A DNA stretch of 59,911 nt, filler included, from Catajapyx aquilonaris (Eukaryota): assembly GCA_000934665.2 (NCBI GenBank). It is 3 parts of 3 records of this genome, joined end to end, with 100 filler letters (N's around TTAATTAATTAA, not from the genome) between each part and the next. Parts side by side here need not be neighbours in the genome. Positions count along the whole stretch, not along the records: positions 39,997 to 59,911 come from JYFJ02006369.1; 2 more parts are not named here. One strand, 5' to 3'. The notes below the pieces were generated by a model. That model had not been told where the DNA came from. It made no database searches and worked only from the letters and a program-made list of their open reading frames with translations. The position numbers and the translations under genes are program-made. Positions 14,566 to 59,911 of this stretch are shown piece by piece; position 1 is the first letter of the stretch; every line of letters begins with the position of its first letter.

Positions 14566-15757
14566 ATGGGGTCATTGGAGGACTCAAAGTCCACTACCAC
14601 GTCAAGGTGGAGATACCATGCACGACACTATTTTTCGCGTCTGTGAAATTTGAAAGTGATACCCATCCTCTGCATGCACACAGATAAGTGAATACTGAAG
14701 GGCGTCATATGATCTGTTGGTCTCGGAAATTCTCTGGAGACTGTTGTCGGAGACTTCAACGCAATATCCCACTTACCATGCTCCTGACCACTCATGATCA
14801 CAGCAATCTCATTGCAAGAAGGTTCATTGAATCGACCGATTGTGGTCGCTTGTCTGCATCGATGACCAAGTCAAATTCCAGAGAAGGAGGGCTCTCAAGT
14901 GCAAGTTTGAAGCTTTTGAAGTAAGTGTGAGTGGAATGGAATCAATGGATCATCTCCTGAAGTTGCAGTATGATGTCGATGCGTGTGCCGTTTAAGTAGG
15001 TGCAACGCGTCGGTGTCAAGCCAAAGGGGCGAATAGACCATTTCTGAGAAAATGGCGATTATCCATCCCCATGTGCATGTAGGTGAAGTGGAGTGTCATA
15101 TGCCAAAGAGGCGAAATCTTGCATAGAACACATCAACACGAGTTGACGAGACGAGCATCGGGCGAATATCGGGGGGGGGGGGGGGGATATCCAATCAGTG
15201 TTCCCATACGAATATTTTTATAATATTAGCATTGGTGATATCCTGTGTCATTGATTCCTTACCGGATTATCATCATATCATGTTGTACATACGGTACAGC
15301 TCAATTCAATTGCTCAGTGAGAGATGCTCTTGCAGAACCAGACGCAGAGGAAACATCGGATGAAGATATTTGAATTGTTCAATACCCACTGCCACAGTAG
15401 ACTAGTGTCGCTGTAATTGAAGCCTTTTTTGCAAAAACAACATATGTTAAATAATGTCACTTTTCAAGAGACACATAAAACATTCTCTGCTCTTCAAAAA
15501 AGGGCTTTCACAGAAATAAAAAATAGTGGCTTATATGTCACTGATGTGACATGACAATGTCTGCAATCAGTTATAGTGCTGGAAAAAATTCAAGGCGGAA
15601 ATTGACATATTATGCTGTTGTAAAATGTGGAATAATGACGCATAATTTTCCACTTATCTTTATAATTATTCTTAAAGGTTTATTATTCTAACTTTCAAAA
15701 AATTCACTCTATGATTTTTCTACACATCTTCACAGCCACTACTCTTATGATTTCTTC

Positions 15758-19887: not shown

Positions 19888-19987
19888 NNNNNNNNNNNNN
19901 NNNNNNNNNNNNNNNNNNNNNNNNNNNNNNNTTAATTAATTAANNNNNNNNNNNNNNNNNNNNNNNNNNNNNNNNNNNNNNNNNNNN
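19888..19987. other. Artificial contig linker
   Basis: 44 N + TTAATTAATTAA (stops in all six frames) + 44 N. Confidence 0.95.
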
Positions 19988-32200: not shown

Positions 32201-34493
32201 GTGGGACACTTGCGGGATGTGCGGCGACTGGTTGTAGCAATGTCCCGAGCACGACTTGGCCTGTACATCTTTGCCCGTGTGTCCCTCTTTCGCAACTGCT
32301 TTGAACTGACACCTGCATTTAACCTGGTGAGATACAATTTCAGGCAAAATAAATGTATGGTAGATAGGTGGAATCAAAGAATGGAGACTTCCCCCATCTA
32401 TAGACCCCCTCCCCCAAACAAGTATGATTCCATGCCAGTGTAATGCTCATTACCAGAAAGAAAAGAAACGATTGATTTTTGAGGAAGCTCAAGTAATTTT
32501 TTTGTTACTATAAAAATGTTTTCTCTCTTCTTAAAAAGTAAATACAGAGATCATGCATCATCAACAGACTCTTGGATATACGTGGGTCATTTGATAATTA
32601 TTGGCAACACTGCTGTAATTTTCGTATCAGTATGGCTACACACATGAATATTTCACATTACCTAGGTGCAGTCCCCAGCTATTTTTTTGACATTTTTCCA
32701 TATCCATGAAAAGCTTCTAACGCCGTCAGCAGCGGTTTTTGTGGAGGCGTTACTCAGAGACTGCCCTAAGATATGCTTCCCTCTTACAGAAATGAAAGCC
32801 ATCTAAGGGTTCCTTCATTTATGTAGTTGATTGTAGTCACATGTACTATTAATTGTGAAAGTAATGTCGCACTGTTATGTGATGCCGTCGCGAACGGCAT
32901 CACACAACAGTGCGACATTACTTTTGCGGTTAATAGTACTCATGTCAGATGAATAGAGAGGATGTTCCAACTGCTCCCTTTCCCATTTCTGGAGAAAATT
33001 TCCGAACAGCAATGACTACATGACAGCAAGGGTTGTCATGGAAGACAATGGGTCCCCTCTGCAACAAAGCCTTCCAAGGCGAATTTATGGGCGGAGATGA
33101 TGTTGCAATTATGGTATTGATGCTGCTTTCCAATTTCCATTGCCAATTCCATGCAGGTCCATCGCCGGTCCATATCCAACAGAGTTGTCACAGTTTCGAC
33201 ATGGGTCGGGTCCATTGCAGTACGGGAGGGGGTCTTCTTTAAAAGCTTGTACAAACCTCACAATGGTACGATACGGGAGGCAGAGTCACCACACATCTGC
33301 ACAAGACCTTAATGGTGCTGTCTGGCAGATTTTCCACGTGAAACAGGGATCTTGATGAAGCAGGGCTGTCTTAGGGCGCTCACGTAAATGGCACTTTGAA
33401 CAGGTACTGTCAGCACATACTGCTGCAAATGCTTCACAAATGGTACCGTAGGGTTCCCCATGACTCTAAAAGTACCTATCCACAGTCAGTCCTGGCAGCC
33501 GGGGCTGCCGAGTGGTAACAGTGTTGCCAATAATTATCGGACAACCCACGTACATCCATGCATTATTTGATATGAAAATTTTGATGCTTATTATATGGCC
33601 AAGATATTTAAGTTTTCATTGTGGGCTTACATGCCTATTTCTATTTATACCCATCAGTATAGAGAGGAAAGCAGAAGAAAAAAGAGTCACATATAACCCA
33701 CCCAATGCATGAAACCAGTTGAAGGTCTTGCTGTCTTAATATAAATGTGTTCTAATAAACTAAGTGAATAATTTCAATATTGCTTGTTGATGTAAAAAAG
33801 ATGAGAATACAATACTTCATCAATAATGACAATCTGCACAAAAAATGCAAATACTTTGAAATGCAAACGAATGGACGAACGAATGTAATAAACCTTTATT
33901 TAAAACCTACAGCTTATGAAACGTCCATTGAACCTCCACCTGGTTCCGGGGGAGACTTTCAATGTAGGACGTTCAGTCCATACCCCTCCAGTGGAACCAA
34001 CCATCGTCATTAAGGACATGCCTCAGATGGCCTCATTTGTATATGAGATGTACATGAAGAAGGTGTCAGTCAGCATGGGTGTGCCAACTGTAAGTAGCCA
34101 GGGATAGAATTTTCATCCCACTGCTAGTTACTGCTAACTTAGCAGTACCATTGCTAACACTGGTACTGCTAAGTTAGCTGTGGGTCGAAAATTCCACCCC
34201 AGGTTTTGATCAGTTACAGCAATGAAAAACTATTGTCACAATTTCAGCAAAAGAGCTGGCCTGTAGCTGAGCAGAAGGTACCTGATCATTCAGTGCCACA
34301 ACACCCTGGTGCTGATCGAGACACTGATGAGGAGGATGAAGATGCTGAGGAAGAGGCAAAACAAGCTGAAGAGAAGGACAAACAAGCCAAGGAGAAGGAA
34401 AAACAAGCTGAGGAATTAAACAGTGAAGATTTAAATGACAAGGACACAGAGAAAGAAGAGAGCATGGATGTGAGACCACCTGGTGATGATTAG
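23214..34493 (+). CDS. AQR: RNA helicase aquarius (intron-binding spliceosomal SF1 helicase), 21 coding exons
   Basis: GT-AG exons read at 23214-23294, 23353-23453, 23527-23683, 25185-25391, 25870-26047, 26114-26292, 26356-26469, 26531-26634, 26692-26800, 26857-27070, 27579-27627, 27729-27826, 29416-29771, 30022-30332, 30387-31127, 31188-31348, 31408-31847, 31905-32074, 32129-32326, 33913-34089, 34248-34493. Motifs [83 protein letters not shown]. Confidence 0.96.
23705..25077. mobile_element. pogo/Tigger-like MITE in AQR intron 3, interrupted by a mariner
   Basis: ta|cagtggactctggacataacag ... ctgttatagccagagtcaagtg|ta. Confidence 0.6.
24073..24979 (-). mobile_element. Internally deleted mariner (same family as 13464-14565)
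   Basis: TA-flanked TIRs; remnants WLLHHDNA and [13 protein letters not shown] of a DD34D transposase. Confidence 0.92.
28128..28288. mobile_element. Palindromic TA-flanked MITE in AQR intron
   Basis: ta|cagttctggtcatat...atatgaccagaactg|ta with ~63-bp arms. Confidence 0.8.
32581..33550 (-). mobile_element. Degraded mariner of a second family, with a nested ~100-bp palindrome at ~32844-32939
   Basis: TIR cgtggg..gataattattggcaacactg, TA flanks; remnants [33 protein letters not shown]. Confidence 0.8.
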
Positions 34494-39896: not shown

Positions 39897-39996
39897 NNNN
39901 NNNNNNNNNNNNNNNNNNNNNNNNNNNNNNNNNNNNNNNNTTAATTAATTAANNNNNNNNNNNNNNNNNNNNNNNNNNNNNNNNNNNNNNNNNNNN
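39897..39996. other. Artificial contig linker
   Basis: 44 N + TTAATTAATTAA + 44 N. Confidence 0.95.
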
Positions 39997-42784: not shown

Positions 42785-45700
42785 GGTGATTGCAGAATTT
42801 AAAGTCATTGCATGTGTGATGGGCATCCAGGGTGGATATGTTAAATACGAAATACCCGTGTTACCACTGCCTGTGGGATAGCCGGGCAGATGACCTACAT
42901 TTCAAGCAGCGAGACTGGCCTGACAGGACGGATTTCACCGAAGGGGAGTTCAACATCCAAAACTCACCGCTCGTCGAAGGATTACAAATCCTAATGTCCC
43001 CACTGCATTTAAAATTAGGATTGATGAAACAATTCGTGAAGGTGTTAGACCAAGATATGTTTCAGCTGAAACGAAAGTTACATTTTCAAGCTAGCTCGAA
43101 AATTTTAATACGACCGCATATTTAAATGATCCTAACTTGCGACATACCCTTTTTTGTTTACAGAGTAAAGAGCATTTAAATACCTGCAAACTCTCTTCCT
43201 TCGCCTATCTGACAAGCAAACCTCCTAGGTGTGGGGATCTACTTTTTGCTGAAACTTTCAGGAATGATTAAGACTAGCTTCAGGATCACTATGGCATAGT
43301 CCAAACCTCTGTAAAATTCCCAGAATCCTCAGAAATTAACTCCAAACCTAATAATTGTGGGAAGCTACTTTTTGCTGAAACTTTCAGGAATGATTAAGAC
43401 TAGCTTCAGGATCACTCTGGCATAGTCCAAACCGCTATAAAATTCCCAGGAGCCCCAAATATTTGGTCCGAATTTGCAACCTTTTTGTGTAGCGTCTTTC
43501 CCAATGCTTGATTTTCCGCCTGAAATATCGGGTTTTTCACGATTTAGAAAAGAAAATCTGGTTTTTGGAACAGTCGGGAGGGAAAGGATGAAAGCGATTC
43601 TATTAATAATAACCCCCCCTAGAGAAACACAGCTAGTCCCCCCTTTCTTTGCTGCACGTGTTCATCTCTGCATCCGCACCTGATCAGCCAGTTGGCCTCA
43701 CTGGCTGTCACTTGGCAGCTGCTTTCTTTGCCCTCTTCCTCGTAATTCTGTGACTCCAATTTGCTTCTTTTGTGTCCTTATCACACCCCTCCTGAACATG
43801 TCCGAAAATCCAGGATCAGCTTTGTTCAGTGACCAAACGGCCCTTATTAGCGCAATCGACCGATCCTGACCAGATCACGACCAGAAGCAAAGGCAGGACA
43901 CCACGCATCATAAACATTACCAAAGTTATTGCGTTGATCTGCCAGAAGCACCGTGTGTCGATGACCCGTCTCCAAGCGCTCATTAATGAAAACATCGATG
44001 TCAACCAGTACGAAGACCTAGAGGTTTTCCTGGACCAAATCCTATATCCAGGAATGGTCAAGATGGGTGTCACCAAGAGTCTCCTTCTCTGCGACTCTTG
44101 GAGTAGCAACAAAAATAGTGAACTCTTCCAGCGTGTCGCCACCAGGTATGATACACCCGCCAGCTCGAGGTGGAACGGCTGATCATTCCCGCTGGCACCA
44201 CCACCGGAATGATTCAGCCGCTGGACGTGTACTACTTTCGCCCATACAAGAGATTTGTACGGCACATAACTGATTCTATGGATATTGACGAGAAGGTCTG
44301 GCAGCGGGAGCGCTACATGAAGCTTCATGCTCTTGCACACTTCCAGTTCCAAGCGCCACGCTTCCAGAATATGGTCAAGTAAGCATTCTGGAAGTGTGGA
44401 TATACTCCCGAGCGACCTGAAGCCTTTGAAGAGACCCCGGTACAGTACTGTTTGGACTTTGACAGTCTTTGTGACTGCGCCGAAGATATCTGCACCGAGG
44501 TTTCCGAGTTCCGCTGTGCGCACTGTAAGAAATGCTTCTGCTTCCATCACTGTTTGTTGGAAAAGGTGCATGATGCAGCGAACTGTGGGACCTATTAAGT
44601 TGGGTAACTGACAGTTTTTGTATAATAATAAATTACCAACTTTGTCCACATAAACTTATGTTTAAAACAGCTCACAGTCAAACAAAGTAGAGTGCTTGCT
44701 GTTAGGCTGCACGGAGAGGGCATTTGGGTTCACCTTTTCATATAGGCGATTGCAAGTGTCAGTTTGGGCGGCAGACCCAATCGTACGCCCGGACTTTCGA
44801 CGCAATCTCGGGGGCTCCTGGGAATTTTATAGCGGTTTGGACTATGCCAGAGTGATCCTGAAGCTAGTCTTAATCATTCCTGAAAGTTTCAGCAAAAAGT
44901 AGCTTCCCACAATTATTAGGTTTGGAGTTAATTTCTGAGGATTCTGGGAATTTTACAGAGGTTTGGACTATGCCAGAGTGATCCTGAAGCTAGGCTTAAT
45001 CATTCCTGAAAGTTTCAGCAAAAAGTAGATCCCCACACCTAGGAGGTTTGCTTGTGAGGCACAAGTTAAAGGTGGGATCTTCATCTGCCCTCAAATAAAC
45101 ACAGCTCTAAAATCGGAGGAGTTTCTCAAAAAACTCAAACCAAAGGAGAAGAAAGCCTGGAGAAGTTTTGGAGACATTGTAGAAAACTTCCTTGGGAACA
45201 ACAAAGCGGACAACTACGAGAAGATTGTCAACGATTTAGTCCTCAACTACGGGGACATGGGCTGCTGAATCACACATCAGCAATTTTTTAACAATTTTGC
45301 ACAATTTTTTTTTTTTGAAAAATTCACCCCCTCCCACCCCACCCCCAATTTCGCGAGTCCTAAGGGATGAAATGAAAGGAACTACGGTCCAAATCAACCA
45401 AATGGGTCTAAGTAACAAGTGGGCAAAGTTGTTTGCTTTTATCACAAAATGCAGTTTTCTGTTGATATTTTCATCGTACCGCGGGGACTATATCATTTTG
45501 AGGGATATAAGAGAGTCTCAGCAAACACTCCCCCCCCCCTCCCCAAATGAAGTCAGAGAATAGGACACATGGTCGTAACAGCATTTAAGCCTGCGGGAAA
45601 CAAGCCTTTCTGGCACGAGTTATAATTAGGAAACAGTTCAGCAGAGGCGCAAAGGTCCAAACCGTTGACCCGAGAGACCACGATCTATGATTTCTTAGCG

Positions 45701-46534
45701 TGAGATGCAGTTGCTTGCGGACCTTATTGTATAGTACAGACCGTTGCCACAGGCGTGCTTTTTGATGTCGCCAAAATCGACTGTTGGTACCATCTTGGGA
45801 ACAATGACAAAAAATTTCTGATTTCGCTGCAGGGAAAGGCATGGAGAGATTAGTTCATAAAATTCGGAGGAGCAATTTTTTTTGCTACTTGCCCTTGAGC
45901 TTGTCGAGAATATATTTCGTCAGGATAATACTGTGAGTTCTGCTTGTCCTATTATTACGACTTTTTCTTTATTGATTCGCAGACGTACAACTTCTGGTAG
46001 TTATTGTTACTGTATGAGGATGTAGACATTTAAAATCAACTGCATATTAATATCGTATGATAGTACTGTAGGGTGGTTCCATTTCAGATCAGCCAGTGAG
46101 TGAAAAAAGGTGTCAGGTCCTAGTCATCGATTTTTTTGAAAAAAATATATGTGAAACCAACATCCAATTGAACTCTTATGGAGCAATCAGTTTTACTAGA
46201 TTAAATTTAGTTATCGAGATATTAATATTTCTTTGAAGGGGTACCAAAATCACAATCACGCGAAGACGCACTTTTTCCCGCTTTTTCCATTGCTTTCAAT
46301 TAGGAAAACTTCCTAGACGCCCACCTCGACATATGTAAGGACAATATGGGTGCCTACTCTGAGGAACATGGTGAGCGGTTCCATCAGGATATCAAGCAGT
46401 TCGAGTCACGATATCAAGGCCAGTACAGATTCAACATGCTCGGCGATTACATTTGGAACTTTAGGGAGAACTTTAGGGAGAGCGATCTCGAACACAAGAG
46501 GAAGTCCTCAAAAACTGCCCGTTTTGACGTGTGA
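42785..46534 (+). pseudogene. Chapaev (CMC)-type transposase split into pieces (42785-43050, 43163-43212, 45055-45266, 46306-46534)
   Basis: TKYPCYHCLWDSR, PLHLKLGLMKQFVK, LSEAQVKGGIFICPQI, ENFLGNNKADNY, GAYSEEHGERFHQDI. Confidence 0.85.
43213..45054 (+). mobile_element. Tc4/Tc5-like DNA transposon with ~245-bp TIRs and a degraded transposase (~43990-44600)
   Basis: TIR starts CAAG; TGA duplicated within a CTGAG target; LLLCDSWS, TTGMIQPLDVYYFRPYK and C-terminal Cys/His cluster. Confidence 0.85.
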
Positions 46535-47319
46535 ATGTTAAATAAACAGACAACTGTTGTTAAGACGTACCAAATGCACTCGAATTACTAAATTGTAAGC
46601 CCTGTACCTCCACACCACCCGTAAACGAAGGCTACCATCTTTCTTTAAGTGTTTGCAAAAGATCGTAAATTAATGTTCAACTCCAAGCAGCAGAAGGAGT
46701 CCAGAAAGGTTTGTATCCACATAACATATTTACCTGATGCTTATGTTCCTATACTTGTGGTAATCACAGAACAGGCCTAAATACAATGCAAGGTTCATTA
46801 ATCCTAGATCATGTCAAAATATTTTCTTATGTGTGCCCAACAACACGCACCATGTGTTAGTGAATGTGCTATCTTTCTTCTTGCTACATGCGTACTTCTC
46901 CGCATGTTGTGTAGTGTTGTTCTTAAGAATTCTTACTTTCATGCAATATGTCATTATATTTTCATCACGTCACTCTGCAATTCATTTTTGAATGAAGATC
47001 TGATATGCAACATGATACAAGGCACACTAGAACCAGAGTTCTTGCGAGAACAATTACCCTTTAGCATAATGTGGAGATCACTGAGTGAATTGATTTTAAG
47101 CAACTAAAGTATCTGACTTGGATCATCCTGTATCTCAGATGTTCATTCATTGTCGTGGAGCTTAACTGAATACCGAGTTCCAATGCAGTATGTAAGGCAC
47201 ATAAAGTGTAATGCAATAAGTGCACAGAACCTACTTATATTCAATGTAGGCCTCTCTCAGAGTCCTGGTAGGTTCCTGTCTTATCTTAATGTAGATTCTA
47301 CTATGTAGCGAAAATTGGC

Positions 47320-47810
47320 TCGCTGACATATTTGGAAAATGAGTGAAATTACGATGTCTTTGCAGGGGAAAACTATAACAACTTTCTCAGCCCAAGACAA
47401 AATAAAATCACATCACTGAAGACCAAAATTAATTTTTTTGATGGATTGTATTGAAGAAGAAACATTTGGTCTTTTGGATCAGTTTGTCAGAGAAGATGAA
47501 TTGCAAATCGGAGATGATGTTAAAAGAAAATATTTGTCAGCATTTGAAGCTACTCGAGCAATCTCTGTCAGAGTACTTCCCAGACACAAACCTGGATACT
47601 GACTGGGTACGAAACCCATTTGAAGTTCGTCAGAAACCTCCTTCGTTTTCTGTACCAGTGTATGAGAAGTTCATTGAACTTACATGCGATTCAAATTTAA
47701 AAGCCAAATTTGCGTCCATGTCACTGAATGAATTTTGGGTTGGATTGCTCTGAGTACCCAACCATACCCAAAAGAGCAGTTCTCACCCTTCTCCCTTTTG
47801 TAACGACCTA
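47320..47810 (+). pseudogene. hAT Buster-type transposase fragment
   Basis: LADIF..SLQGK, YFPD..WVRNPF, EFW..EYPTI..LLPFVTTY. Confidence 0.85.
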
Positions 47811-48172
47811 TAGATTGAAGGGAAACAATCGAGCCAGTCATGAGATGATGTGCAATATGTGTGGAATGAAGTTACTGAGTAAGAATGAAAGAAAAAATTA
47901 TTTATTTGAAGAAGTTAAGGGAGTCAGTTTGGCTCAGGTCTTACTGAGAGGATGTCAGAATGGGAAGTACCTAGTTTCGGCCAATTTCCTCCGAGCTTGG
48001 TCGGTCAAGATGATAGATGGACAGAAAGTCATTGATCAAATTCACAGCTGTTGGTTATGTAGCGGCTTAAGAGCATAACATTTTTCTGGTTATATGAAGA
48101 TTGGGGAGGTTTGGGATGAGGTATATTTCGATTACCATCTGAGCAAACACGCTAGATCCCCTGACGAAATAT

Positions 48173-48466
48173 CAGTTTAACTTTGTGTTGGCGAATCGAT
48201 TGTCTAACGGTCGGTATAGCATTGCACTGCATAAAGAGGTGAGTGCGAACGCTTCGGAGGCCTTTGCTATTGTCACCTTGGGGAGTCGACGCTCTGTAAT
48301 AATGACGTCAAAAGATGCTGTAAAATTTCACTTGGAGCCTCTGGTTATGAAATCAGCGATTGGTCATTGTATTATTGTGAAACCCCCTACTGCAACCTTA
48401 TGGTATCTCGAGGTGCCTGAAGACAGCTGTGGGGTTTCTATTGTATTAATTTTACAACAGGTGTAA
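48173..48466 (+). pseudogene. Unknown protein family, copy B (possibly extending upstream to ~47840 across a frameshift)
   Basis: Protein-level homology to 42181-42489. Confidence 0.65.
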
Positions 48467-49141
48467 TAAAATGCCCGTAGAAAAGAGTCACCAAAATTTG
48501 TATAATATTTCATACCGCACCTTATTTTTGTCATTTTTCAGAAATACAAACGTCACTTTCTGCATTTTCAACATTTTCTGCATTTTTCTGGGTTAGGAGT
48601 TGCTGGGTTACCTGCTGACCGGATACTGGATGGTGTAGATGGCTAGCTAAATCCGGAAGGGAAAGTGCATTCTCTAAGGATAAGTTCAAACGTAGATTTA
48701 TCTCCACTCAAACCACTTGCGCTTATTCGAGTTCAGGTTAAAGCATACACCCCCACCAGAACTATATAAACGCATTCCTGCGTTGCTTCGACCTTCATTC
48801 TCAGTTTGGTATCACGCAGTGGTAGCTTCTCATCCTCAGAAGCTGTTCCTTCGGTAAAAGTGAGTAACATCTTCCATACGATAATTTTCGTGCAGTGAAA
48901 ACATATACTCGCATCGCATGTCCTTAGATCTCAGTAAATATCTAGGTCCTGATCGCAAGGCGTTAGATAGGCGTATTCTAGTGTGCAGGAATATTTTGAA
49001 TGAGTAAAGATTTTTACACAAAGTGAAGAGTTCATAAGATATCAAGGTGTAAACATTTTCGTGATTTGCAGTGACTTTTTATTCCTCGCAATATAAAAGT
49101 AATATTGTATACGCTTTGATCACATTTCTTAGATGGGCCTT

Positions 49142-49399
49142 AGATAAAAGAATTGCAGGTGTAATTAGCCAAAGAGGCCTTACCACCTGTGGGCAACAAT
49201 CCAACAATGTCCGGCTCCCAGATCCATAGAGTCTGGGGCCGGGGCATACGAAACGTTCCAAGTCAATATTGTCCCAAGGATGAACCGGAGCCGAAGCCCC
49301 AGGCCCCCGGAACCAGCATTAGCCCAAGCCCCCCTGGGCCAGCGCCCAGGGGGACCAAACCTCCTACCCACGCACACCAACAGCCCAAGAAACAACCAC
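49142..49399 (+). repeat. Direct repeat, copy 1 (copy 2 at 59653-59911)
   Basis: ~258 bp with only a handful of differences. Confidence 0.95.
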
Positions 49400-49508
49400 G
49401 AATATTGTAACCAATAACAGAAAATAAAGAAAAGAGAACCCTCTCAGACCCCACAACCCCACAACTGCAAAAGACATACAACCCCCCCCCCCCCCAANCA
49501 ACCCTCCA

Positions 49509-50119
49509 ATGCTCTCCCGCCAACTCCAATCGCGGCCGACGACATCAATCATGGATCGAGAACAGAAACTTGTCAGCCGCCAAACAGAAACGACTAAGTG
49601 ACGCCCAGTGAAATTATTGTTCATTACTATGGGTAACAAATGATGCCTTCTCAAGACACCATTCTCCATACATGGGTATTGGGATGTAGACTCCTACTCA
49701 TGCAATGAGACAGAAATAGGGCATCTTGAGAACCTGCTCGAGAGTAATACGACCTTCATCAGAGACACCCAGTGATTTCCGCCAAGCGACATCTACGGAT
49801 GCTGCAACTTCCAAGCACATGAGTTTTGTTACCATCATAACAAAATGACCCCTCATGATTACATGAAGAAAATTGATGATATAAATCAACAATTTAACAA
49901 AGAAACATGGTACCCGTTCACATGGATCAAAAACAGGAACCAGTGTATAATTATACAATTATCCAACCAAAACAGACGTACCCCATCGGAAACACAACAC
50001 TGCAACTTCACTTCGTTGAATCCTGTCGAAGGGTTCCCCATTCCCATGAGAAGATATTCCAAGTCTCATCAGATGAAATGGGGGTCTTGGGTCTTCTTGG
50101 CTTTCGATTTTTGCGATGA
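49509..50119 (+). pseudogene. Disrupted unknown ORF directly upstream of the glycoprotein
   Basis: One reading frame broken only by three TGA codons (49599, 49641, 49773). Confidence 0.45.
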
Positions 50120-51963
50120 CTTTAACCGCCATCGATGGCTACCTATCCTTAGAAAAGTCTCAGATCTCAGTTGCCGACCTTTACAAATGCACAAAAAACA
50201 CAGAAAATCCGTACATCCACCCACTGTATAACTGCAGCGGAAAAATAGGATCAACAAGCCCTATTTTGCAGCAGCCATGGATGAAGTTGATTGGTGGATA
50301 CCAAGATCAATGGACATCCACGCTCAATACCTGTCAAGTACAGGTGGGTATCTGGTCTCTGGACACCTCTGCGTGGAACATAAACGTAACCTACTGTCAT
50401 GGTGTCGAGTACACCTCCAAGTATACCTATTGGTTTTTTGGGGGCGCAGACGGAGACCGTGAAGACAACCCCTGTGACGGTAGATGCAGTGTACTGTAAA
50501 AAAAATACATAAGGGAGCTAGATGAAAAGAGGGAAAATGGATACAAGGGGAACCAGATTGGAGAATTTGTTCATGCAAAACATGGCTGGACAGGAACATC
50601 AACAACAATCTCACGGATAATCATGATCTCCAATTTAACGGTAAGTATGGATCATTGGGATCTAAGCATAAAAACTCTGATCCCATTATCTGGACATTGT
50701 CTCTACAACCAAACTTATTGTTACACTGCGGATCATGGGGTCATGATATGGGAAACTATTCCAGATCCCAGTTGGAATAAAGACAAGTGCAATCACAAAC
50801 TAGATGACGTATTGACATGCCATGTGAGTCTCTCCAAGAATACCGTGGCCACTGTAATATGTCCCACCCATGACTCCATGTTTCGTGTAAATATGACAAG
50901 TGCACAGTTATTATGCAGTGTTTCTGACAAATCCATACAACAAAACCTCTGGACATCAATGGAGGGAAAAGTGATATCCTTTATTACCATGAAGGGTACT
51001 GGATGTTTTCTTTCTTCATTCAAGGTTCCAGTCAGCGAGACAGGCTGTTTTGACAAGAAGAAACTCAAGTATGAAGACCCGTTTGGGAATCTGGACCAAC
51101 AAAACTACGTGTACCTCAATATGGCAAAGGTGGATGGAAAGATGCTGGAGCTAATATATCAAACAATCATTATGGTGAGCAACAAGGCAAATCTGGATGC
51201 AAATTCAATAGATTCATCAGGAATTAAGGGACTGGAGATCAGCTGGTTCAACTCAACACATAGGATGTATAGCAAAAAGACATCTGGAACATTGATCCAA
51301 AGATTGTGTACACTGAGTTATGTGAAATGTCTAAAAATAAAAACGGGATTAGACAATGACAAATGTTTGAGGGCTGAGATAACGGATGGCACGATAGTGA
51401 GGTTTGATCCAACAAACATGATTATCGTGAATGAGGAATACGAGTGCCAGTCATATAAAGATTCTCTCCTCTTACTTAAAGACAACACGATTATGGACTT
51501 AACCACTGGGTCCACTGCAAACGGGGCTGTTTTGGCAAACCCTCATCTTCCTTCAATGGAGGTCAGCTCACACGCCTCCTTGACAGCATTAGACCTGGAT
51601 CGGATAAGTTCCCTATCTATGGTGTTCGACCAACTTAATGCACAGTCTCGGACCCTTATGGATGAGACAAACATGTTCCTCGAGCCGTCATTTGACAATG
51701 ACAAATACAAAACCTCTACAGACACCTCCTCAGGTCCATCATTAGAAGGTTGGAAGAACTGGTTATTAGGCCCACTGTGGTCCATATTTGCCTCCCTCAT
51801 CATAACTGTAATCATCATAATCATAACCATTGTCTTACTCAAGTTTGGGACCAAAATGATATTCTGTCCAAAAGACACCAGCTCAGAACATGAATACATT
51901 TATATGAAACCAAACCCACCCAGCAAGAAAGATTTGAACAGATCACACGATGCATTCAGATAA
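50078..51963 (+). pseudogene. Viral type I membrane glycoprotein (~630 aa reconstructed), class III / Mononegavirales-G-like
   Basis: Signal-peptide-like start (one frameshift), Cys-rich ectodomain with YTYWFFG and HGWTG loop-like motifs, several N-x-S/T sequons, C-terminal TM WSIFASLIITVIIIIITIVLL and short tail; compensating homopolymer frameshifts at ~50440 and ~50500; no introns. Confidence 0.75.
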
Positions 51964-52143
51964 TATAACATTTTTTTTAAAAAAAAAGTGTCTTGAGTGG
52001 AGTTGCTCAGGCGTTTGTACGTATGTTGTTTCTGAGTGCTTATAGATAAACTTTTTGAGTGTAATTGGTTAGGATAGTGTTGTTCAGACGGCACAAGTGT
52101 TAATAAAATTAGTCCAGCTTTCCTGAACTAATTTTATTATTTT

Positions 52144-53331
52144 AAGGGGGGAGAGTATGTGATGACCCTGGGTCATGACCTGATGATTAGTGTGCCCCCG
52201 GGTTAGTCCATATTATTCCTCAAAGTTTAATTGCTGCTTATCTTTTTCGTTGCTTCATCCCAACCTACATTCCTTTCCTTTTGCGCTGCTCCGGCTGATG
52301 TAAGGTATTTTGGGCAGCGCGAGGCAGATTGGAATGTTGACCTTTGTACTTGGTGCTGTCTAGTGAATTCTTTCTTTTGCTCTTCTCGGGGTCGCTCAGG
52401 AGCCAATCGGAGTTAGTAATGTAGAGATGTACTTGATGCGGTCATCTTTGGCCATCCGGGTTAATTTTGCGTTTAGTTTTTCTACCAATGATTTCATTCT
52501 GGTCACTCCGAAGCTTGAGCGAGACCGAGGAAAGAAGCCCCAACTTGGGGACAGTTGGCGGGCACCTATGTAGTGAGTAACATGTAATTTCTGACGGACG
52601 CTGTGGCCCAGCCCTTAGCGCGGGGTTGGTTGGGCACTGGGCAGTCGAAATGGGGGTCTTGGGTCTTCTTGGCGTCAATTAGGCGCGTTCCGGTTTTTTT
52701 CCGGACTTAAAACTTTTCTTGTTTGAACTAATGTGAGGCAACCGGCTTGAAATTGTGATAGCCAGGCGTGAGTGGAGTGATGTTTAGTGATCCCTCCAAA
52801 TTGTGCGGATTGAGAGAAAAAGTGACGTGCAACTGGAAGATGATGGCCGAAAAGGACGCTCTGGACAACCTGAGGGAGAAGAGTGGAGCGGGCCAGAAGT
52901 CTGGTCTCGTCTCTGATTGGTCGAGACGATTGGTCTGAAGCCCCCCGATGGTATCTTCACCTTATCGTGGTGGTGGGGTTTGCGTTTCTCCCGTGACCCC
53001 AAGAGCTATGTCGGCGCGGCGGTAGCTTCGTCTACTGGTAGGGCCACCCAAGCCGGACAGGTCTTTGGGATAGGAGACAGACTAAGAGAGATGCCAGTCT
53101 TTCCTCTCCGTTTCTCTCCATCGGTCACACCTTTGCTTCTTCTACAGCCAGATAGCCACAGTTGCTTCGGCTTCTTCCTAACAAACCAAACCAATCTGAA
53201 GCTGCGCTGTGATTGGTCAGTTATCCGAGACTGGCTCATGTAAACTCGGACTATCGCTTGGCCTTTGCCCTTATCAGCAGACCTCTGACCTCGACTAATT
53301 GTTGGCACGCGCCAGGGCTCGTGCCTCATCA
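52144..53331 (+). mobile_element. Polypurine tract (52144-52155) plus putative 3' LTR (52160-53331)
   Basis: aaggggggagag followed within a few nt by TGATGA...TCATCA inverted termini; only one copy in the window so not confirmed. Confidence 0.6.
52958..53090 (+). ncRNA. Structured RNA motif resembling the conserved 5' leader of RTE-clade retrotransposons
   Basis: caccttatcgtggtgg..gagctatgtcggc..ctggtagggccacccaagccggacaggtc..cagactaagag; internal complementarities tgtcggc/gccggaca, tttctcc/ggagac, ggtgg/ccacc. Confidence 0.5.
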
Positions 53332-53999
53332 GTAGAGCTCGGAAAAAACCGCAGCATCAGCAGGGGGGCCCCCACAGGACCTGTGACCACCCACTCCTCC
53401 CCCACCACCTACCTGGCCGCTCACCCGCCCAGGTGACACCCCGACTAAATAGGCCCGCACCTTTAGAGCATTGCAGCCAGCCATACGTCACCTGGACACC
53501 CGCACATGGTCCCACGTGACGCCCCCATCCCACCACACCTCCACCTCTTGAGCTAAAACAGGGGTTCCCGCTGACTGCTAGAACCGAGGGACTCTGGATT
53601 CAGAGTCCAGCGCCATAGCCCCTCGGCCAGCACCCCTTGGTTGGGGGAAGGTGTGTTGGACCCCGTATGCACATGCCTCGCTGTGACGTAGCACAGGAGG
53701 GGTGGGGCTGTTTGGAGGGGCGGGAGCCATTTTAGTTTTTGGCTGGCTGGCTGGGGCGTTGAATATTCACGCAATCTCTGCCTTGGCTTATCAGTCTTGA
53801 GATATAACAACTAGAGAGACTGGAGGTGAGAGGTCACCTAAAAATAACCCCCACCAACTCTATGTAACGGGGGGCATGGGGCAGAGGGGAGGAGGCGACG
53901 CCATGTTGACAAGGCAGCAGCCATTGTGTATCTTGGGCATCTTTTGCATCTTATGTGTGCACTCTGGGTCACCAGCTACTTATGCTGTTATCTTTCCAG

Positions 54000-54352
54000 A
54001 TCTCATTCAAGCAGTATTATAAAATAGCATATGATCTGCATGTCCGTGTCAGGAACCAGCCCATGCTTGTGGCCCAGGTGGGAGACGAGGATCTTCCGGG
54101 ACCATTATGTTTTGTATATATTGTCCCGGAGCTGTGCTGGCCAGTTAGCCATCAGACTGCAGTGGAATCCGGATTACCTAGGGTTATCATATACCCAGAC
54201 ACTGCAGACACTGAGGCTACTGGAGCAGGAGGGACATCTCCACACCCTTGGCAGTCCCCAGTATGTTGGTTAACAGACTTTCATATTCATAAACTCCTGC
54301 TTATTTGTTTTTTTCTCCCTAGGAAAGAGAGCAACAGCAAGACACAGCATAG
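54000..54352 (+). CDS. Isolated PIWI/Argonaute PAZ C-terminal fragment in a small spliced gene (54000-54260, 54323-54352)
   Basis: ISFKQYYKIAYDLHVRVRNQPMLV...VYIVPELC matches the PIWI PAZ pattern ISFxxYYxxxYxxxIxDxxQPML...LxPELC; acceptor tctttccAG, donor GTatgt, acceptor tctccctAG, then stop. Confidence 0.65.
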
Positions 54353-57300
54353 AAATGTGGTTATTTATTTATTTATTATTATTAAGGTTGTACAATATTA
54401 TTGTGAAATATATCAGATCAACTCTATAATAGTCTGGAACCTTGTCCCAGGTGTTTTTCTCCATAAGGACCCATTGTTTAGCCTTACATCGGGCGATTCA
54501 GCAGATATGTTATCACTGCACACCACATTATGGAAGAATAATGCAGATAACGCCGCTTCCTGGTCTGGTCCACTTCATCGTCGAACACCCACAAGTGGGG
54601 GTCCGTGACCCATTCCACATGACCCACATCATTGCCCTGCATGAAGGTACTACATAATTATATAGTGTAATAATTCAGACGCACACCAAAAGGTCAATGA
54701 ACACCACATCCTTCGCATTTTTCATGTCTTGTGGTGTGATTATCCTATCTGAGGGTTGAGGGAAAGATAGGAGCTGTTGGTTGCTGGGTGATATGGAAAT
54801 GAGCCAACATCCTCCAACTTTTTCCAATCATTCCGAGCCATGGTTGCGTGGCGATCACATCATAAACAGAGATTGACAATTGTGTAGCAGAGTGATGACA
54901 GTGAGGAAGATGAAGAGGTGCAAAGGAGACGGCCAGCCTTGCAGGATCAACTCCGGCGACAGAGAGTGAAACAACAACAACGTCGACGCACGTAATGGAG
55001 GTTCCAGTCTGCCGATGCCGGTGGACCCGGTAGCTATATCAGCGATAGAGCGGCGGGCTGGTGTCCTCTATTTGGGGGAAGCTCCATCGGAACATGGCTG
55101 CGAGTAGACATCTGGAAGGTCTTCAGCTTTGGCTGGAGGTGTGGTAGTGGACAATGGACCCGAAGGTGGATGTCAACCGGCCGGTTTATTTTCGTCCATG
55201 ATTATTCGCAGCATGTGCCCAACCTCTTCTCTGCTAGTGCTAAGCTTTGTATACATGGCTAACCTGGCGTTCATATTCGCCCAAACCTCCGTGGCCTGAA
55301 ACCAACCACATTTCTTCCAGACTGGCTGGGCCCCCCTCTTTTTCCGCCATATATGCCCAGTTTTGTTGGCACGATATGGTAATTGGCACGGTATTGGCAC
55401 GAGCTCGGTCTGTTACATTGTTTGTTGGCATCTGCGAGTTTTTTCCCTAAATGTACCTCTTTTGAAACATTGTGCGCTCCGGGGCTTCCAATTATCCGCG
55501 ATCGCTCTAACTGTTCGAACATTAATACACCGTCATCCTGCTGCTCTCGATGGAACTGTTTTTGTGGGAGAGCATGATATGCTGGCCGCGAGCCGATTGT
55601 AAGTAACGACACGTTCGGTCGAGTTGTTTGCATCAGGCGCAATTATATTTTCAGATTCCTGCGTAGTCGAGCGTTTATTTGGGGATGAGCTGCCCAACCT
55701 TTTTGATGAACAGGCCGAATTGGGATACTTGCTGGAGGTGTATAATTGCGAGGTGTGGGATGAGGAGGAGGGCGGTGGCGGGGTGGGATGGTATCGCATT
55801 GTCAGCGACGTTGTCGAGGCGGAATTTGACGGCGGTGAGTTCGTAAATTTATTTAACGAGAGGCCTCTCCCAAATCTCTACTTGGATTGGGCTCTGGGAG
55901 GCGGTCCTTGGCGCTATTACTGTGTCGACGATTTTTAGGAGGAGGATGATGAATGGGTGGGGGAGGCGCTGGTAAATTTATTCAACGAGGCTCCCCTGGA
56001 GGGCTATTATTTGGAATTTGTGGAGCCGGATGATCTGAGCGCGTCATACTGGGCTCATGTTCAGAGTCCGAGCCGGTTGATTGGCATCTTGCGCGACGAG
56101 TTGCCTTTTGCATGGAGCAAAGGATACTAGGAAGCTAATTCACGGTCGCAACCTCCCTCCTTCTTCCCCCCCTCCGATATATGGCACTCCGCACGCCCCG
56201 TCGTTTCACTCGAGCCATGTCAGTCCAAGTGGTTCTGTTTATTGGGGTCGAACCTCACACGTGTTTTAAACTGCGTCAGAGCGAGCAGGTGGTGGGGGTC
56301 TGGAAAGATGCCCACGAGGTTTTGGCGGATCCGGGGCTCATCCCGGCTGGCCTGGCTCACACCTACAGCTATTGCGTGTACCCCTCCTTCACTTGCACTT
56401 GTCGGGTGCAGAAGAAATTCCGTTTGGATATTAATAGCGGCGTCTCTTGGCTCTCTCACGCCTTGTGCCTGGAATGGTATAAGTGCGGGCGCGGGAGTCT
56501 TTCCCGGATATACTGAATCATTTTTCCCTTCCAGATGCTCGGCTACGAGAAGATGGTTCCTTGTCGAGCGGTGTACCACATGACCACGGAACTCTGTCAG
56601 CTGGCCGTTTTCTGCATGTCCGAATTGGACATGCAGAAAACGGCCAGCAATTGACATTCCTCCAAAGTAAACTTGCAGCCAACAACTAAATGGACCAGAA
56701 CCCAACTCTAAGGAACCAGAATTGAAGCAAACTCCAGCATGACGGAACATCAAAGTGCAATACCCAACATCTATGTAATTATTGAGCAAGACCATCTTCA
56801 TCCGTTGTGGAAAATAAAACGTTGCTCTTATGCCACACTCAGATCCATAATTAAGTCTTTTCATACCAAATGACCACTGCATTGGTTACAAAAGTTTCAT
56901 TTAAAAAAAATATATGCAAGTAGCAGCAATGGTCTCCGTAATTACGGTTGTAAGATGTGGTTATTAAAAAAGTATCTGTATCCGAATTTGATGCAGAAGC
57001 AGCGACATTTTGTAGTGATGTGACATCAACTTGCGATGCCTTGGGACACTGCGTGTCAAAACGATCAGTGTGACACAAAAGGTCAAATGTCAGTGACTGA
57101 ACCCAGTCATGTATATTTAGACATGACCGGCTTTATGAAAAATTGTCACATATATTTATGTGACAATTGTGAATTCGACATATATGAAGCTGCTGTCTAT
57201 TCCGGAGATTTGCAAAAAGGTTAGTTCTGTTGCCCAGAATGCGTCATGTTAAAGCTTCGTTTTTTACCTCCCGCATGGTTATTTTCAATGAAACGTTTGC

Positions 57301-57449
57301 TAGCACAAAAAGCTCTGTCGCGCCAAACAAATAAAACCATTACTGCATAAACGTGGAATGAAGCAATTTGCAGCCGCAGTGCTCAGGACATTGCCAGCGC
57401 ATTCTTAACATTTCTCATAGAAATTCGCGATCAGGACCGTGTGATCATA

Positions 57450-59200
57450 CGGCTCGAGAATGGCTCTTCCCAAAATATGACACCAAATCTCTCTACAACA
57501 AGGAAACAGATCAACGCGAGCTCAAGCACAGAGAAAAAATGGTAATGCAGACCATAGTCATAACAGGGAAAGACAAATGCTTCAAATACATGATGGACTT
57601 AATGAGATCATATGGGTCTTACATAAAACACGACGAAAGGTCTAAATTGACCAGGAGAGCCATAGCCTCCCCATCAATCATTCAGAGGATTTTCCTATAC
57701 ATCGTTGAGGACTTCCATTTGGAACTGGGAAAGGAACTTCCTGACTCAACAATCTCCATAGGCGGCGAAGAAGAAGAAAAAAAAGGCTAAAATCACAACC
57801 GAATTGACGGCGGGATCCAAGGAAGGAATTTTAATGCCAAAAACAGTCCAAGCAACTGAGGACGCAACAAAATGGAATGAATGCTTAAGCGTGGAGTGTT
57901 TCTCTCTCTTCCATGACACAATTTTGGGTGAAGAAGCAAGAAGTTTAACTGGTCTACCAAGACCTAATTCAAATGAAAGACTCTTCAACCAAATACTCCA
58001 AGCCTCACATTTCAACCTAGCAGTAAAGCGCATTTTCCTAAATGAAGGCCCCATCTGCATTCAAAAGTCTGAATATAAGCGAGTACCTTATTCCACCCAA
58101 AACATAAGCAGATTCAATGATAATACCAAAGAATGGGTTTCCCAAGCAGAAAAGCTATTCGATGACAACTACCTAACTGCTAGCCCTGGAATGCTCATGG
58201 GAATGCACAACGCACTGTCAACTACCATCAGGCTACTAGCCGAGAACTTCCTGTTGGACACCACCAAAAGCAATGTTACCACACTCAGGTCGAGTGACGA
58301 CTCCATGACTGTTTTTACAAGAATTGATGATGAATCAATGATAGAGGCCCTACACTCTAACGATTATTGCCTCAAACTCCTAGGAATCAACATCAGTGAC
58401 TCCAAATCTTGGCTGTGCAAGGAATCTTTTGGTGAGTTTACGTCATGGTACCAAGACGGTCAATTCATTGCCCAATTTGGGGTGGAAACCGCCAACATGA
58501 GAGCTGGTGGCCAAAACCCAACAGATGACTTCTTTCAAATAGCAAAGAGCACTGCAAGCTCTCTATCCCGCTTAGAGATGAACCACTGAGGAGCACATTG
58601 CAAGCTGCCAATCGGCATTGACAATGTAAGAAGGTTGTGGAGAATTGAACAAACCCTTCACAAAAGGCAAAATGTGTCTCCCAAAATCCTGGTTCTTGCT
58701 GACGGAGGCCATAGGACCCCACTAACGCTCATCTGGAAGAAACCAGCATTAAATCAATGTGGACAACAACCAAAGAAGAGAAGGAGTACCTATTTAAGAT
58801 AAGGAATCCTGAAAACCCTTTCTCTGCAGCTGCCGAGGAAGAAATAAGTTTTCCAAAGGAAACAAACAGCATTTGTTTGACGCTACTTGAAAATCCTAGG
58901 ACTGTCTTCAACTTCATGAAGAGAAGCAATAGAACTGGTTTGAATAGGGGCAAAGACAATCTAGAAAATGAGAAGTCCAACCTGCATGCTCTTCAAATCC
59001 CTAACCTTATTGATTGCTCAACACTTCTAAAGGTGCCTTCACAGACCTCCACTATTGCAAGTCATCTGACCGGGATGTTAGAGACATACGCGTCCATATT
59101 TAAACTTAGTGACAAAGAGCTTAAATTATTGGCAGACGCCCAAAATAGATTAAGGAATGTAGACACTGATGATGAGAGCCAAACTTTAGACTTTTGTTAG
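57450..59200 (+). pseudogene. PB1: Endogenous orthomyxovirus (quaranjavirus-like) PB1 RdRp, central and C-terminal part
   Basis: RRAIASP, TEDATKWNECL (motif A), SPGMLMGMHNALSTT (B), RSSDDS (C), LLGINIS..KS (D), EFTSWYQDG (E); frameshift ~57780, stop 58587-58589, lesion ~58710, native stop 59198-59200. Confidence 0.95.
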
Positions 59201-59222
59201 AGGACACACACAATGTGTAAAT

Positions 59223-59244
59223 TGAAAAGAGCCTTGTTTCTACT
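59223..59244 (+). promoter_or_regulatory. Orthomyxovirus segment terminus
   Basis: tgaaaagag then CCTTGTTTCTACT (59232-59244), the complement of the conserved influenza A 5' vRNA end AGUAGAAACAAGG, 31 nt after the PB1 stop. Confidence 0.85.
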
Positions 59245-59352
59245 GGCTGCCATCAACTCGGAACTGATTAGCGCAAACGAAATCATTTTGCGGTACTTGG
59301 TCCCAGGACATACATTCATGTCGGCAGACGGAATTCATGGGAAAATCGGTTC
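59245..59352 (+). pseudogene. DDE transposase fragment (Sola1-like)
   Basis: IILRYLVPGHTFMSADGIHGKI resembles the FLxxGHTxMxxDSxH motif. Confidence 0.55.
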
Positions 59353-59355
59353 CTA

Positions 59356-59589
59356 ATGGACGCAGTTCGGATGCCTAACGCTCCACAAATTCAGTTTTAC
59401 GGAAAATATTGGTTTGTGCAAGTTAAGCTATACAGTAACTCACCCTACATCCTCACAAGAGAATATGCCGACCTGGATTTGAATGGGGCAGGCAGCAAGT
59501 TGCNCCCCCCCCCCAAGTTAGTACCAAACTTGATAGGAGCATTGCAAGAGATCGAGTCAGATCTCCGAGGAAAAGGGTATACATTCTAA
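59356..59589 (+). CDS. Small PC4/Sub1-like ssDNA-binding-domain ORF
   Basis: GKYWFVQVKLYSNSPYILTREY...LIGALQEIESDL aligns by eye with PC4 [22 protein letters not shown]...LKEQISDIDDAV; AATAAA follows. Confidence 0.45.
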   Translation: MDAVRMPNAPQIQFYGKYWFVQVKLYSNSPYILTREYADLDLNGAGSKLXPPPKLVPNLIGALQEIESDLRGKGYTF

Positions 59590-59652
59590 TGTGATATCGT
59601 GTTTCTCTCGTAGTAATAAAAATAATTAGCCAATTCTCTCATAGTACCAGCA

Positions 59653-59911
59653 AGATAAAAGGAATTGCAGGTGTAATTAGCCAAAGAGGCCTTACCACCT
59701 GTGGGCAACAAACCAACAATGTCCGGCTCCCAGATCCATAGGGTCTGGGGCCGGGGCATACGAAACGTTCCAAGTCAATATTGTCCCAAGGAAGAACAGG
59801 AGCCGAAGCCCCAGGCCCCCGGAACCAGCATTAGCCCAAGCCCCCCTGGGCCAGCGCTCAGGGGGACCAAACCTCCTACCCACGCACACCAACAGCCCAA
59901 GAAAAAACCAC
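59653..59911 (+). repeat. Direct repeat, copy 2, running off the window end
   Basis: Near-identical to 49142-49399. Confidence 0.95.

Follow-up and report, generated by a model that had tools for sequence, protein, structure and literature searches.

A decayed glycoprotein gene of probable RNA-virus ancestry near an orthomyxovirus PB1 fossil among repeats of Catajapyx aquilonaris

A stretch of 59,911 nucleotides of Catajapyx aquilonaris DNA (assembly GCA_000934665.2), here called the window, contains a broken gene for a membrane glycoprotein, hereafter G, and, starting ~5.5 kb downstream of it on the same strand, a truncated gene for an orthomyxovirus PB1 polymerase (Table 1). On balance we think it rather likely that G is a decayed non-retroviral endogenous viral element (EVE) that lies beside an independent orthomyxovirus PB1 EVE among repeats. 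The best reading of the locus is that of two unrelated viral fossils on one strand, both within repeats. A first-pass annotation of the same DNA had seen in G the envelope gene of a long terminal repeat (LTR) retroelement; that placement was not borne out, and its strongest points are weighed below together with other possible origins of the gene.

The glycoprotein frame

The frame consists of an ATG at 50073-50075, a body at 50077-50496 and 50500-51960, and a terminal stop at 51961-51963. Its product, read with X at the internal stop, has 628 residues with 19 cysteines, 18 of which are located ahead of the membrane anchor, and its ectodomain carries six N-x-S/T sequons. A single strong hydrophobic span (residues ~567-590) is followed by a tail of ~38 residues, and the whole has the layout of a type-I viral surface or fusion glycoprotein. 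The longest open stretch comprises 487 codons, which is far beyond chance, and the frame is therefore regarded as real. The gene is broken in two places, because an in-frame TAA occupies 50497-50499 and the start codon lies in a different frame from the body, the frame change being situated somewhere between 50076 and ~50115. The intronless glycoprotein of ~630 residues that had been described earlier is thus present as a cysteine-rich frame of 628 codons with a membrane span, but this frame is not intact, and the hydrophobic stretch at its N-terminus exists only when the two frames are joined in reading. No additional G-like pieces were found in the window.

Two weak, independent and concordant signals suggest the viral family of G. 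In a language-model protein atlas queried with the 487-residue open reading frame (ORF), all 30 of the nearest clusters listed (19 + 3 + 1 + 3 + 4) belonged to sets with PF24664 (Monjiviricetes_fusion) or rhabdovirus G families, with top scores of 0.96, 0.95, and 0.95 and a recognition value of 1893, which is below the mark of 2300 for a strong call. A sequence search of the PDB that admitted E values of up to 10 returned as its sole matches five chains of rabies virus G (6lgw, 6lgx, 9kef, 9kep, and 9kfb; E 0.1-0.23), in which residues 162-226 of our G align to the second fusion-loop site, the next strands, and a Cys pair. The aligned part includes HGWTG (residues ~169-173), one half of an aromatic loop pair whose other half is YTYWFFGG (residues ~116-123). 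The latter motif, ~50 residues before HGWTG, presumably stands where the first fusion loop of a rhabdovirus G would be. Taken together, these signals point to G as probably a class III fusion glycoprotein of the Monjiviricetes type, as found in rhabdo- and chuviruses. One weak Pfam match, to Baculo_F over the stem and membrane anchor of G, was also obtained (E 0.019; 14 bits, where the cut-off is 24.1) and was discounted because of hydrophobic bias.

The composition of the G frame (A 0.326, GC 0.421, CpG observed/expected 0.46) is not continued downstream. Shortly after the stop codon follows the T8A9 tract, which may be left over from the end of a viral mRNA or its poly(A), and past this A-run the composition shifts abruptly (51990-52159: A 0.247, C 0.106, T 0.382), for which reason the A9 tract was taken as the 3' edge of the viral block. 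On the other side the virus-like block probably begins ~500 nt ahead of G, at ~49540. This start was placed there because the upstream stretch has an open frame in phase with the start codon, has a G-like composition (A 0.342, G 0.172; A-rich and G-poor like the G and PB1 frames), and is represented over 49687-49736 in a diverged second copy seen in contigs from DNA runs. In three-frame translation the stretch 49540-50072 carries cysteines and sequons; Pfam found no match in it, and 49776-50072 had no relatives among the longer proteins, the length class searched.

The contigs, which stem from three DNA runs of one sample, were compared with the window over 45000-59911. One covering 49825-51924 of G showed 0 differences in all three runs at depths of 22.4, 14.8, and 21.1, and one covering 57065-59514 of PB1 had depths of 15.3, 13.3, and 18.8, so G and PB1 are each present in about one copy. 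Among the matches listed, further contigs with a depth of ~26-35 align to G with a reported identity of 80-84% (differences 75/368, 51/278, 34/185, and 32/194), and there is thus at least one older or independently acquired copy of G elsewhere in the genome. For PB1, no diverged second copy was found among the matches listed. None of the five runs was listed as an RNA run, and one of them, X5, of unstated kind, yielded no contig on G or PB1; neither point has any bearing on expression.

The orthomyxovirus PB1 fossil

PB1 was recognized by three collinear Pfam matches to Flu_PB1 (PF00602; E 1.5e-13, 9.2e-31, and 9.4e-5; 50.3, 107.2, and 21.2 bits, with a cut-off of 26.4), which together extend over positions 191-717 of the 732-position profile. 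Searches gave 74 relatives with a best E value of 1.6e-66 and identities of 35-48%, mostly from insect orthomyxo/quaranja-like viruses, the identity to insect quaranja-like viruses being 41-47%; among the relatives is a PB1-like protein on a 62.8-Mb contig of Chilo suppressalis (P0060). According to tblastn the gene runs through frames 2, 3, and 2, with two frame changes and one internal stop, and ~218 N-terminal residues are gone. The composition (A 0.346, GC 0.419, CpG observed/expected 0.44) was determined as for G. The sequence retains DATKWNE, GMLMGMHNALST, SSDD, and EFTSW, which we take to be polymerase motifs A, B, C, and E. As a viral sequence that occurs in DNA-run contigs and in the same window as a host aquarius gene, PB1 is identified from its sequence as a non-retroviral EVE. 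Apart from PB1 and G, no viral domains were detected in the Pfam scans of ORFs in the window, and the viral gene neighboring G is this RNA-virus polymerase and not the gag-pol of an LTR element.

Orthomyxovirus mRNAs are polyadenylated at a short A-run. The PB1 insert continues past the presumed polyadenylation A-run to the segment end, so that its template would have been the full-length replication strand and not a polyadenylated mRNA; it is the opposite end of the insert that is truncated. The terminal CCTTGTTTCTACT has its sole exact occurrence in the window at this place, where ~0.002 occurrences are expected by uniform-base arithmetic, and its reverse complement, 5'-AGUAGAAACAAGG, is what the available text of PMC5137447 gives as the conserved 5' end of influenza A viral RNA.

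Two plus-strand ORF fragments, from 57351 to ~57475 and at 59245-59356, flank PB1 and were read as halves of one interrupted frame (…AQDIASAFLTFL… / …YLVPGHTFMSADGIHG…), for which Pfam reported no family. They may belong to a transposase-like family.

The supposed LTR element and the surrounding repeats

The strings that had suggested the 3' end of an LTR element are all present as described, namely the T-run with A9, a purine tract ~180 nt past the stop, and a 1172-bp segment running from TGATGA to TCATCA. In the window as a whole, however, 68 purine runs reach a length of 12 nt or more (both strands), 30 of which have a TG within the 6 nt that follow, and on its plus strand TGATGA occurs 41 times and TCATCA 26 times. 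Given these counts the supposed polypurine tract and the TG...CA ends are at chance level and not distinctive; in a repeat-rich genome, a purine tract and TG...CA ends seen by eye are not evidence of an LTR. For the coding part of such an element, stop-to-stop ORFs of at least 75 residues were collected over the whole window, and Pfam detected no reverse transcriptase, RNase H, integrase, protease, or gag domain in 211 of these 213 ORFs (two with N runs were dropped) or in 32 shorter ORFs near the locus. Neither repeat finding nor blastn revealed a second copy of 52160-53331 within the window. The sole long direct repeat of the window (49142/59653) belongs to a high-copy family and is unrelated to the segment. 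A tRNA scan and an Rfam scan of the window gave 0 and 0 matches, and no tRNA-related sequence that would bear on a primer-binding site was found in it.

The internal structure of the segment was informative as well. In successive 500-nt bins across it the summed contig depth was 210, 2122, and 20106, compared with ~13-22 for unique contigs; this depth is a crude measure that should not be read as a copy number, and what is robust is the 100-fold contrast together with the fact that the core occurs independently. The core lies in a 266-nt piece that other genomic copies of the surrounding repeat lack, and the corresponding joints from 52924 or 52926 to 53193 were seen in three runs. Contigs with zero differences and a depth of ~12-13 (runs X2 and X3) span 53146-54015 and run across the supposed LTR end at 53331. 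Two pieces of the core, 52948-53001 and 53032-53103, match 14619-14567 and 13454-13381 on the opposite strand (80% and 73%, respectively), where the core copy stands without the rest of the segment and is split by a mariner-like remnant. Because of the uneven depth, the missing 266-nt piece, the through-running contigs, and the lone core, the segment is regarded as a patchwork of repeats and not as a demonstrated terminal repeat. Within the window, the env position of an LTR retroelement was therefore not confirmed: no pol or gag domain was found in the ORFs scanned, and neither a paired LTR nor a target-site duplication was seen, while the segment itself is better read as a mosaic.

One further part of the supposed element, an ORF of unknown nature upstream of G, does exist as a proline-rich frame at 49165-49410, but it lies within the first copy of the 49142/59653 repeat and is not a gene of an element. 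It was taken as repeat sequence because of the very high summed contig depth of that repeat (3733 in the bin 48984-49481, in comparison to ~15-22 for unique sequence). Contigs on both copies have loose ends (at 49158 and at 59670/59734), and other genomic copies thus continue differently on both sides. A short exact match connects the supposed LTR to G, since a 27-nt patch at the start of the frame recurs in the segment (Table 1); on extension the identity is 94% over 32 nt, and the flanking sequences are unrelated on either side. This patch may have arisen by a template switch.

The window is eukaryotic and contains numerous repeat remnants. The host gene closest to G that can be recognized clearly, ~17 kb upstream in window coordinates, is a multi-exon gene for the intron-binding helicase aquarius at 23501-32440 (+), with Aquarius_N domains, AAA_11, and AAA_12 in Pfam. 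Mariner-type remnants were found at 13381-14619 (-) and 24340-24660 (-), with matches to HTH_48 (E 7.7e-4) and Transposase_1 (E 6.6e-5). Terminal inverted repeats of 260 nt (97% complementary), each containing a 126-nt tandem duplication, delimit 43209-45058, and the 1.3-kb interior has a minus-strand open frame of 279 codons without a Pfam family; this is probably a DNA transposon. Very high-copy repeats occupy 45996-46493 and 55956-56951 (summed contig depth ~23000 and ~1000, respectively, compared with 13-22 for unique sequence). Collinear open-frame remnants on the plus strand at 46304-48078 (e.g., …MGAYSEEHGERFHQDIKQFESRYQG…) had no Pfam match and are reminiscent of hAT-type transposase-derived proteins. 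Between the G and PB1 fossils, a plus-strand open frame of 232 codons at 53910-54605 has a short PAZ match (PF02170, E 1.1e-7, 32.3 bits) and is identified by this domain as a fragment of an Argonaute/Piwi-type gene; no further Piwi/Ago domains were detected in nearby ORFs. Two N-run patterns of identical appearance (44 N, 12 bases, 44 N) stand ~20 kb apart at 19888-19987 and 39897-39996, and at 49498 and 59504 a single N interrupts a homopolymer run of C. Both features probably stem from masking and assembly ambiguity and not from biology.

Table 1. Positions in the window of the viral fossils, the parts of the supposed LTR element, and the associated repeats.
Feature	Position	Strand	Description
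Repeat copy 1	49142-49399		97% identical to 59653-59911
Upstream stretch of virus-like composition	49540-50072	+	Mostly open, 3 stops, in phase with ATG 50073
G-like glycoprotein pseudogene	50073-51963	+	628 codons, type-I membrane layout, one in-frame stop, start out of frame
27-nt patch at start of G frame	50075-50101	+	Equals 52647-52673 in supposed LTR; blastn 27/27, E 2.5e-7
T8A9 tract	T8 51971-51978, A9 51979-51987	+	Begins 8 nt past G stop
Supposed polypurine tract	52144-52155	+	12-nt AAGGGGGGAGAG, 181 nt past G stop
Supposed 1172-bp LTR	52160-53331		TGATGA 52160-52165, TCATCA 53326-53331; repeat mosaic
266-nt piece	52927-53192		Absent from other genomic copies of surrounding repeat; holds highest-copy core
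Orthomyxovirus PB1 pseudogene	57479-59200	+	Residues ~219-792 of ~796; 5'-truncated; internal stop 58587-58589
Segment terminus CCTTGTTTCTACT	59232-59244	+	32 nt past PB1 stop; end of PB1 insert
Repeat copy 2	59653-59911		Partner of 49142 repeat; cut by window end

Alternative origins and comparison with known systems

A number of results speak against G as a non-retroviral EVE with a Monjiviricetes-type fusogen. The atlas evidence is weak because the recognition value fell short of its mark, and the N-terminal 140 residues of G alone retrieved only kelch/RAG2-type noise (0.87) from the atlas. PDB searches with residues 1-140 and 227-560 returned nothing relevant. Pfam assigned the whole G frame and three pieces of it to no family even with E values of up to 10 admitted (PF24664 is presumed to be in the library), and the same queries produced no profile match to Rhabdo_glycop (PF00974) or PF24664 above the family threshold. 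A word-index protein search with G gave 0 matches, an exhaustive phmmer search of 1.84 billion protein representatives gave 0 matches, viral or cellular, and a scan of IMG/VR confirmed 0 of 7 pattern matches. AlphaFold2 run without an alignment produced unusable models, with a predicted local distance difference test score of 33.7 for 628 residues and 33.4 for 419 residues. The edges of the insert are not clear either, as no target-site duplication was found around the G block, the flanks having one chance-level 8-mer in common. Moreover, directly behind the gene come a purine tract and then a TG...CA repeat, as would be expected at the 3' end of an env-bearing LTR element, and the reach of the diverged G copy upstream of G (49687-49736) agrees equally well with a formerly mobile unit and with a segmental duplication. 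The proposal that G is similar to the glycoproteins of the Mononegavirales thus receives weak support from the atlas sets and the rabies virus G alignment, but none from Pfam, the word-index search, or phmmer.

The absence of a significant match to any viral protein, together with a viral assignment composed of one weak-flagged language-model search and one alignment at E = 0.1, would also agree with a non-viral origin of G as a decayed lineage-specific host membrane glycoprotein gene or its retrocopy. We consider such an origin very improbable: a cellular match is equally missing among the 1.84 billion representatives, two independent methods agree on one viral superfamily, and the gene is intronless, with the A-rich mRNA-sense composition of the neighboring PB1 fossil, and is embedded among repeats adjoining another viral fossil. 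More weight, albeit still that of an unlikely alternative, is given to 49540-53331 being the 3' half of an old, degraded env-bearing LTR element (pol end or spacer, env, polypurine tract, and 3' LTR) which lost gag-pol and its 5' LTR and whose remaining LTR was later invaded by repeats. The succession of G, A-run, 12-nt purine tract, and repeated TG...CA segment on one strand has the form that such a remnant would take, the segment is part of repeat families abundant in the genome, and the 27-nt patch of the segment recurs at the start of G as in spliced or recombinant retroelement RNAs. At least one more copy of G, ~80% identical, extends upstream of the frame. In several arthropod orders, BEL/Pao and gypsy elements carry a chuvirus-like G as their env, according to the available parts of PMC7642597 and PMC13524379. 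In opposition to this, none of the five element domains sought was found in the ORFs scanned, the 570 nt upstream of G have no relative, the window contains no second LTR copy, and the purine tract and the TGATGA and TCATCA strings occur at chance frequency. Depth varies 100-fold along the segment, its core occurs alone elsewhere, and unique contigs cross its supposed end; G itself is approximately single-copy, unlike the multi-copy, near-identical elements in the literature.

A different question is whether G and PB1 derive from one orthomyxo-like (quaranja-like) virus, G being an extremely diverged gp64-type class III protein and two segments having been captured at one locus. The two fossils lie on the same strand, 5.5 kb apart, and are similar in decay (one stop and one frame change in G, one stop and two frame changes in PB1), near-identical in composition (A 0.326 and 0.346, GC 0.421 and 0.419, CpG observed/expected 0.46 and 0.44), and both of approximately single-copy depth; in the 16 nt past the respective A-runs, 9 of 16 positions match by manual count. 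The idea stays alive because some gp64 proteins are recognizable by HHpred only, and for one quaranjavirus clade the accessible text of PMC10653993 describes surface proteins that are invisible to BLAST and were identified as gp64 only by HHpred. We nevertheless judge it improbable. The conserved terminus that follows PB1 was not found after G, even with three mismatches allowed, and a two-mismatch match to the orthomyxovirus 5'-side motif near G (49926) is no more than chance would give, 9 such matches having been found where 6.8 were expected. No gp64 family match was obtained for G: Pfam reported no Baculo_gp64, none of the 30 atlas matches was listed under gp64, and the PDB search with E values of up to 10 returned rabies virus G and no gp64, Thogoto, or Dhori glycoprotein chain. 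Orthomyxovirus untranslated regions comprise a few tens of nucleotides. The virus-like block ahead of the G start exceeds 500 nt and is thus too long for the leader of an orthomyxovirus segment. In addition, G has a diverged second copy and PB1 has none among the matches listed. In a variant of a common origin, G and PB1 would both come from a single unsampled lineage of arthropod viruses, orthomyxo-like and segmented, with a surface protein that was neither gp64 nor HA-like but a class III glycoprotein of the rhabdo/chu type, preceded by a second frame; both genes would have been copied into the locus in one infection. This variant has a slight chance of being correct, and if true it would record a further swap of an envelope gene between orders of negative-strand viruses.

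As a decayed non-retroviral EVE, the reading that we prefer, G would have been copied into DNA from a portion of the RNA of a negative-strand RNA virus that is itself unsampled, and the copy would have become fixed in an arthropod-like chromosome, where it is decaying. The encoded protein would have belonged to the class III fusogens of rhabdo/chu type (Monjiviricetes), and the viral block would extend from ~49540 to the A9 tract ending at 51987. The copy may have been made by a cellular or retroelement reverse transcriptase with template switching, which would explain both the repeat-derived 27-nt patch at the 5' edge and the abrupt change in composition after the A-run. The 1172-bp segment would then be a patchwork of interspersed repeats whose TG...CA ends and purine tract occur at chance level. 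The G element would now be inactive as a protein, and the locus would be at most a candidate source of small RNAs.

Among known class III proteins, G shares with rabies virus G the type-I layout, the Cys-rich ectodomain, and the aromatic loop pair; it differs in being ~100 residues longer, in the lack of a Rhabdo_glycop match, and in an E value no better than 0.1-0.23 for an alignment of 65 residues. The class III proteins of arthropod orthomyxoviruses are of the gp64 type, and far fewer sequences are known for gp64 than for PB1 (PMC10653993, available text). The gp64 proteins of thogoto-, quaranja-, and baculoviruses are the fusogen type of the virus group to which PB1 belongs, and some of them are beyond the reach of BLAST according to the same text, but G has no Pfam, PDB, or atlas link to gp64. 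Env-bearing LTR elements with a chuvirus-like G have been described as Anakin (BEL/Pao) in mosquitoes and as gypsy elements in Coleoptera, Hymenoptera, Polyneoptera, and Hexanauplia (PMC7642597 and PMC13524379, in the parts available), so that an element of this type would belong to a kind already described. Like these elements, the locus has a class III-type G of probable RNA-virus ancestry and, further along that strand, a purine tract and then a repeated segment with TG...CA ends. They have an upstream gag-pol, two highly similar LTRs, and many near-identical copies in the same sources; in the window, by contrast, neither gag-pol nor a paired LTR was found, G is approximately single-copy with at least one further copy at 80% identity, and the segment is heterogeneous.

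The closest parallels to G are the Jingchuvirales glycoprotein EVEs, which occur widely among arthropods and of which the available text of PMC10084718 counts 158, with 939 copies in 38 species; most of them adjoin fragmentary Gypsy/BEL-Pao elements or simple repeats, and only two lie inside complete elements. Like those EVEs, as far as described in the excerpts of PMC7642597 (Dezordi et al. 2020) and PMC10084718 (Dezordi et al. 2023), G is glycoprotein-only, low-copy with diverged copies, flanked by repeats and possibly by remains of retroelements, and disrupted by one stop and one frame change. It is unlike them in having no detectable sequence relative and no PF24664 match, since they were found by BLAST with chuvirus glycoproteins, and membership of G in the Jingchuvirales is not established. 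Given that it has no relative in 1.84 billion predicted proteins, G may so far be the only record of a virus lineage that has yet to be sampled, and could possibly serve as bait for virus discovery.

PB1, for its part, is truncated and frame-shifted like other insect orthomyxovirus EVEs and is 35-48% identical to insect orthomyxo/quaranja-like PB1 proteins. In mosquitoes, 223 orthomyxovirus EVEs have been reported (NP 180, HP2 23, GP 9, PB1 6, HP3 5; PMC10956553, available text). The fossil in the window is distinctive among such EVEs in retaining the exact 13-nt segment terminus past the presumed polyadenylation A-run. This terminus bears on how EVEs form, as it suggests a full-length replication strand as template for reverse transcription, a point of which no discussion was found in the available portion of PMC10956553. 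On this reading, G and PB1 are ordinary viral fossils in an arthropod-like genome, of a kind already described, and their arrangement, with two RNA-virus fossils on the same strand in a 10-kb stretch of repeats, matches that described for the EVE clusters of mosquitoes that give rise to small RNAs.

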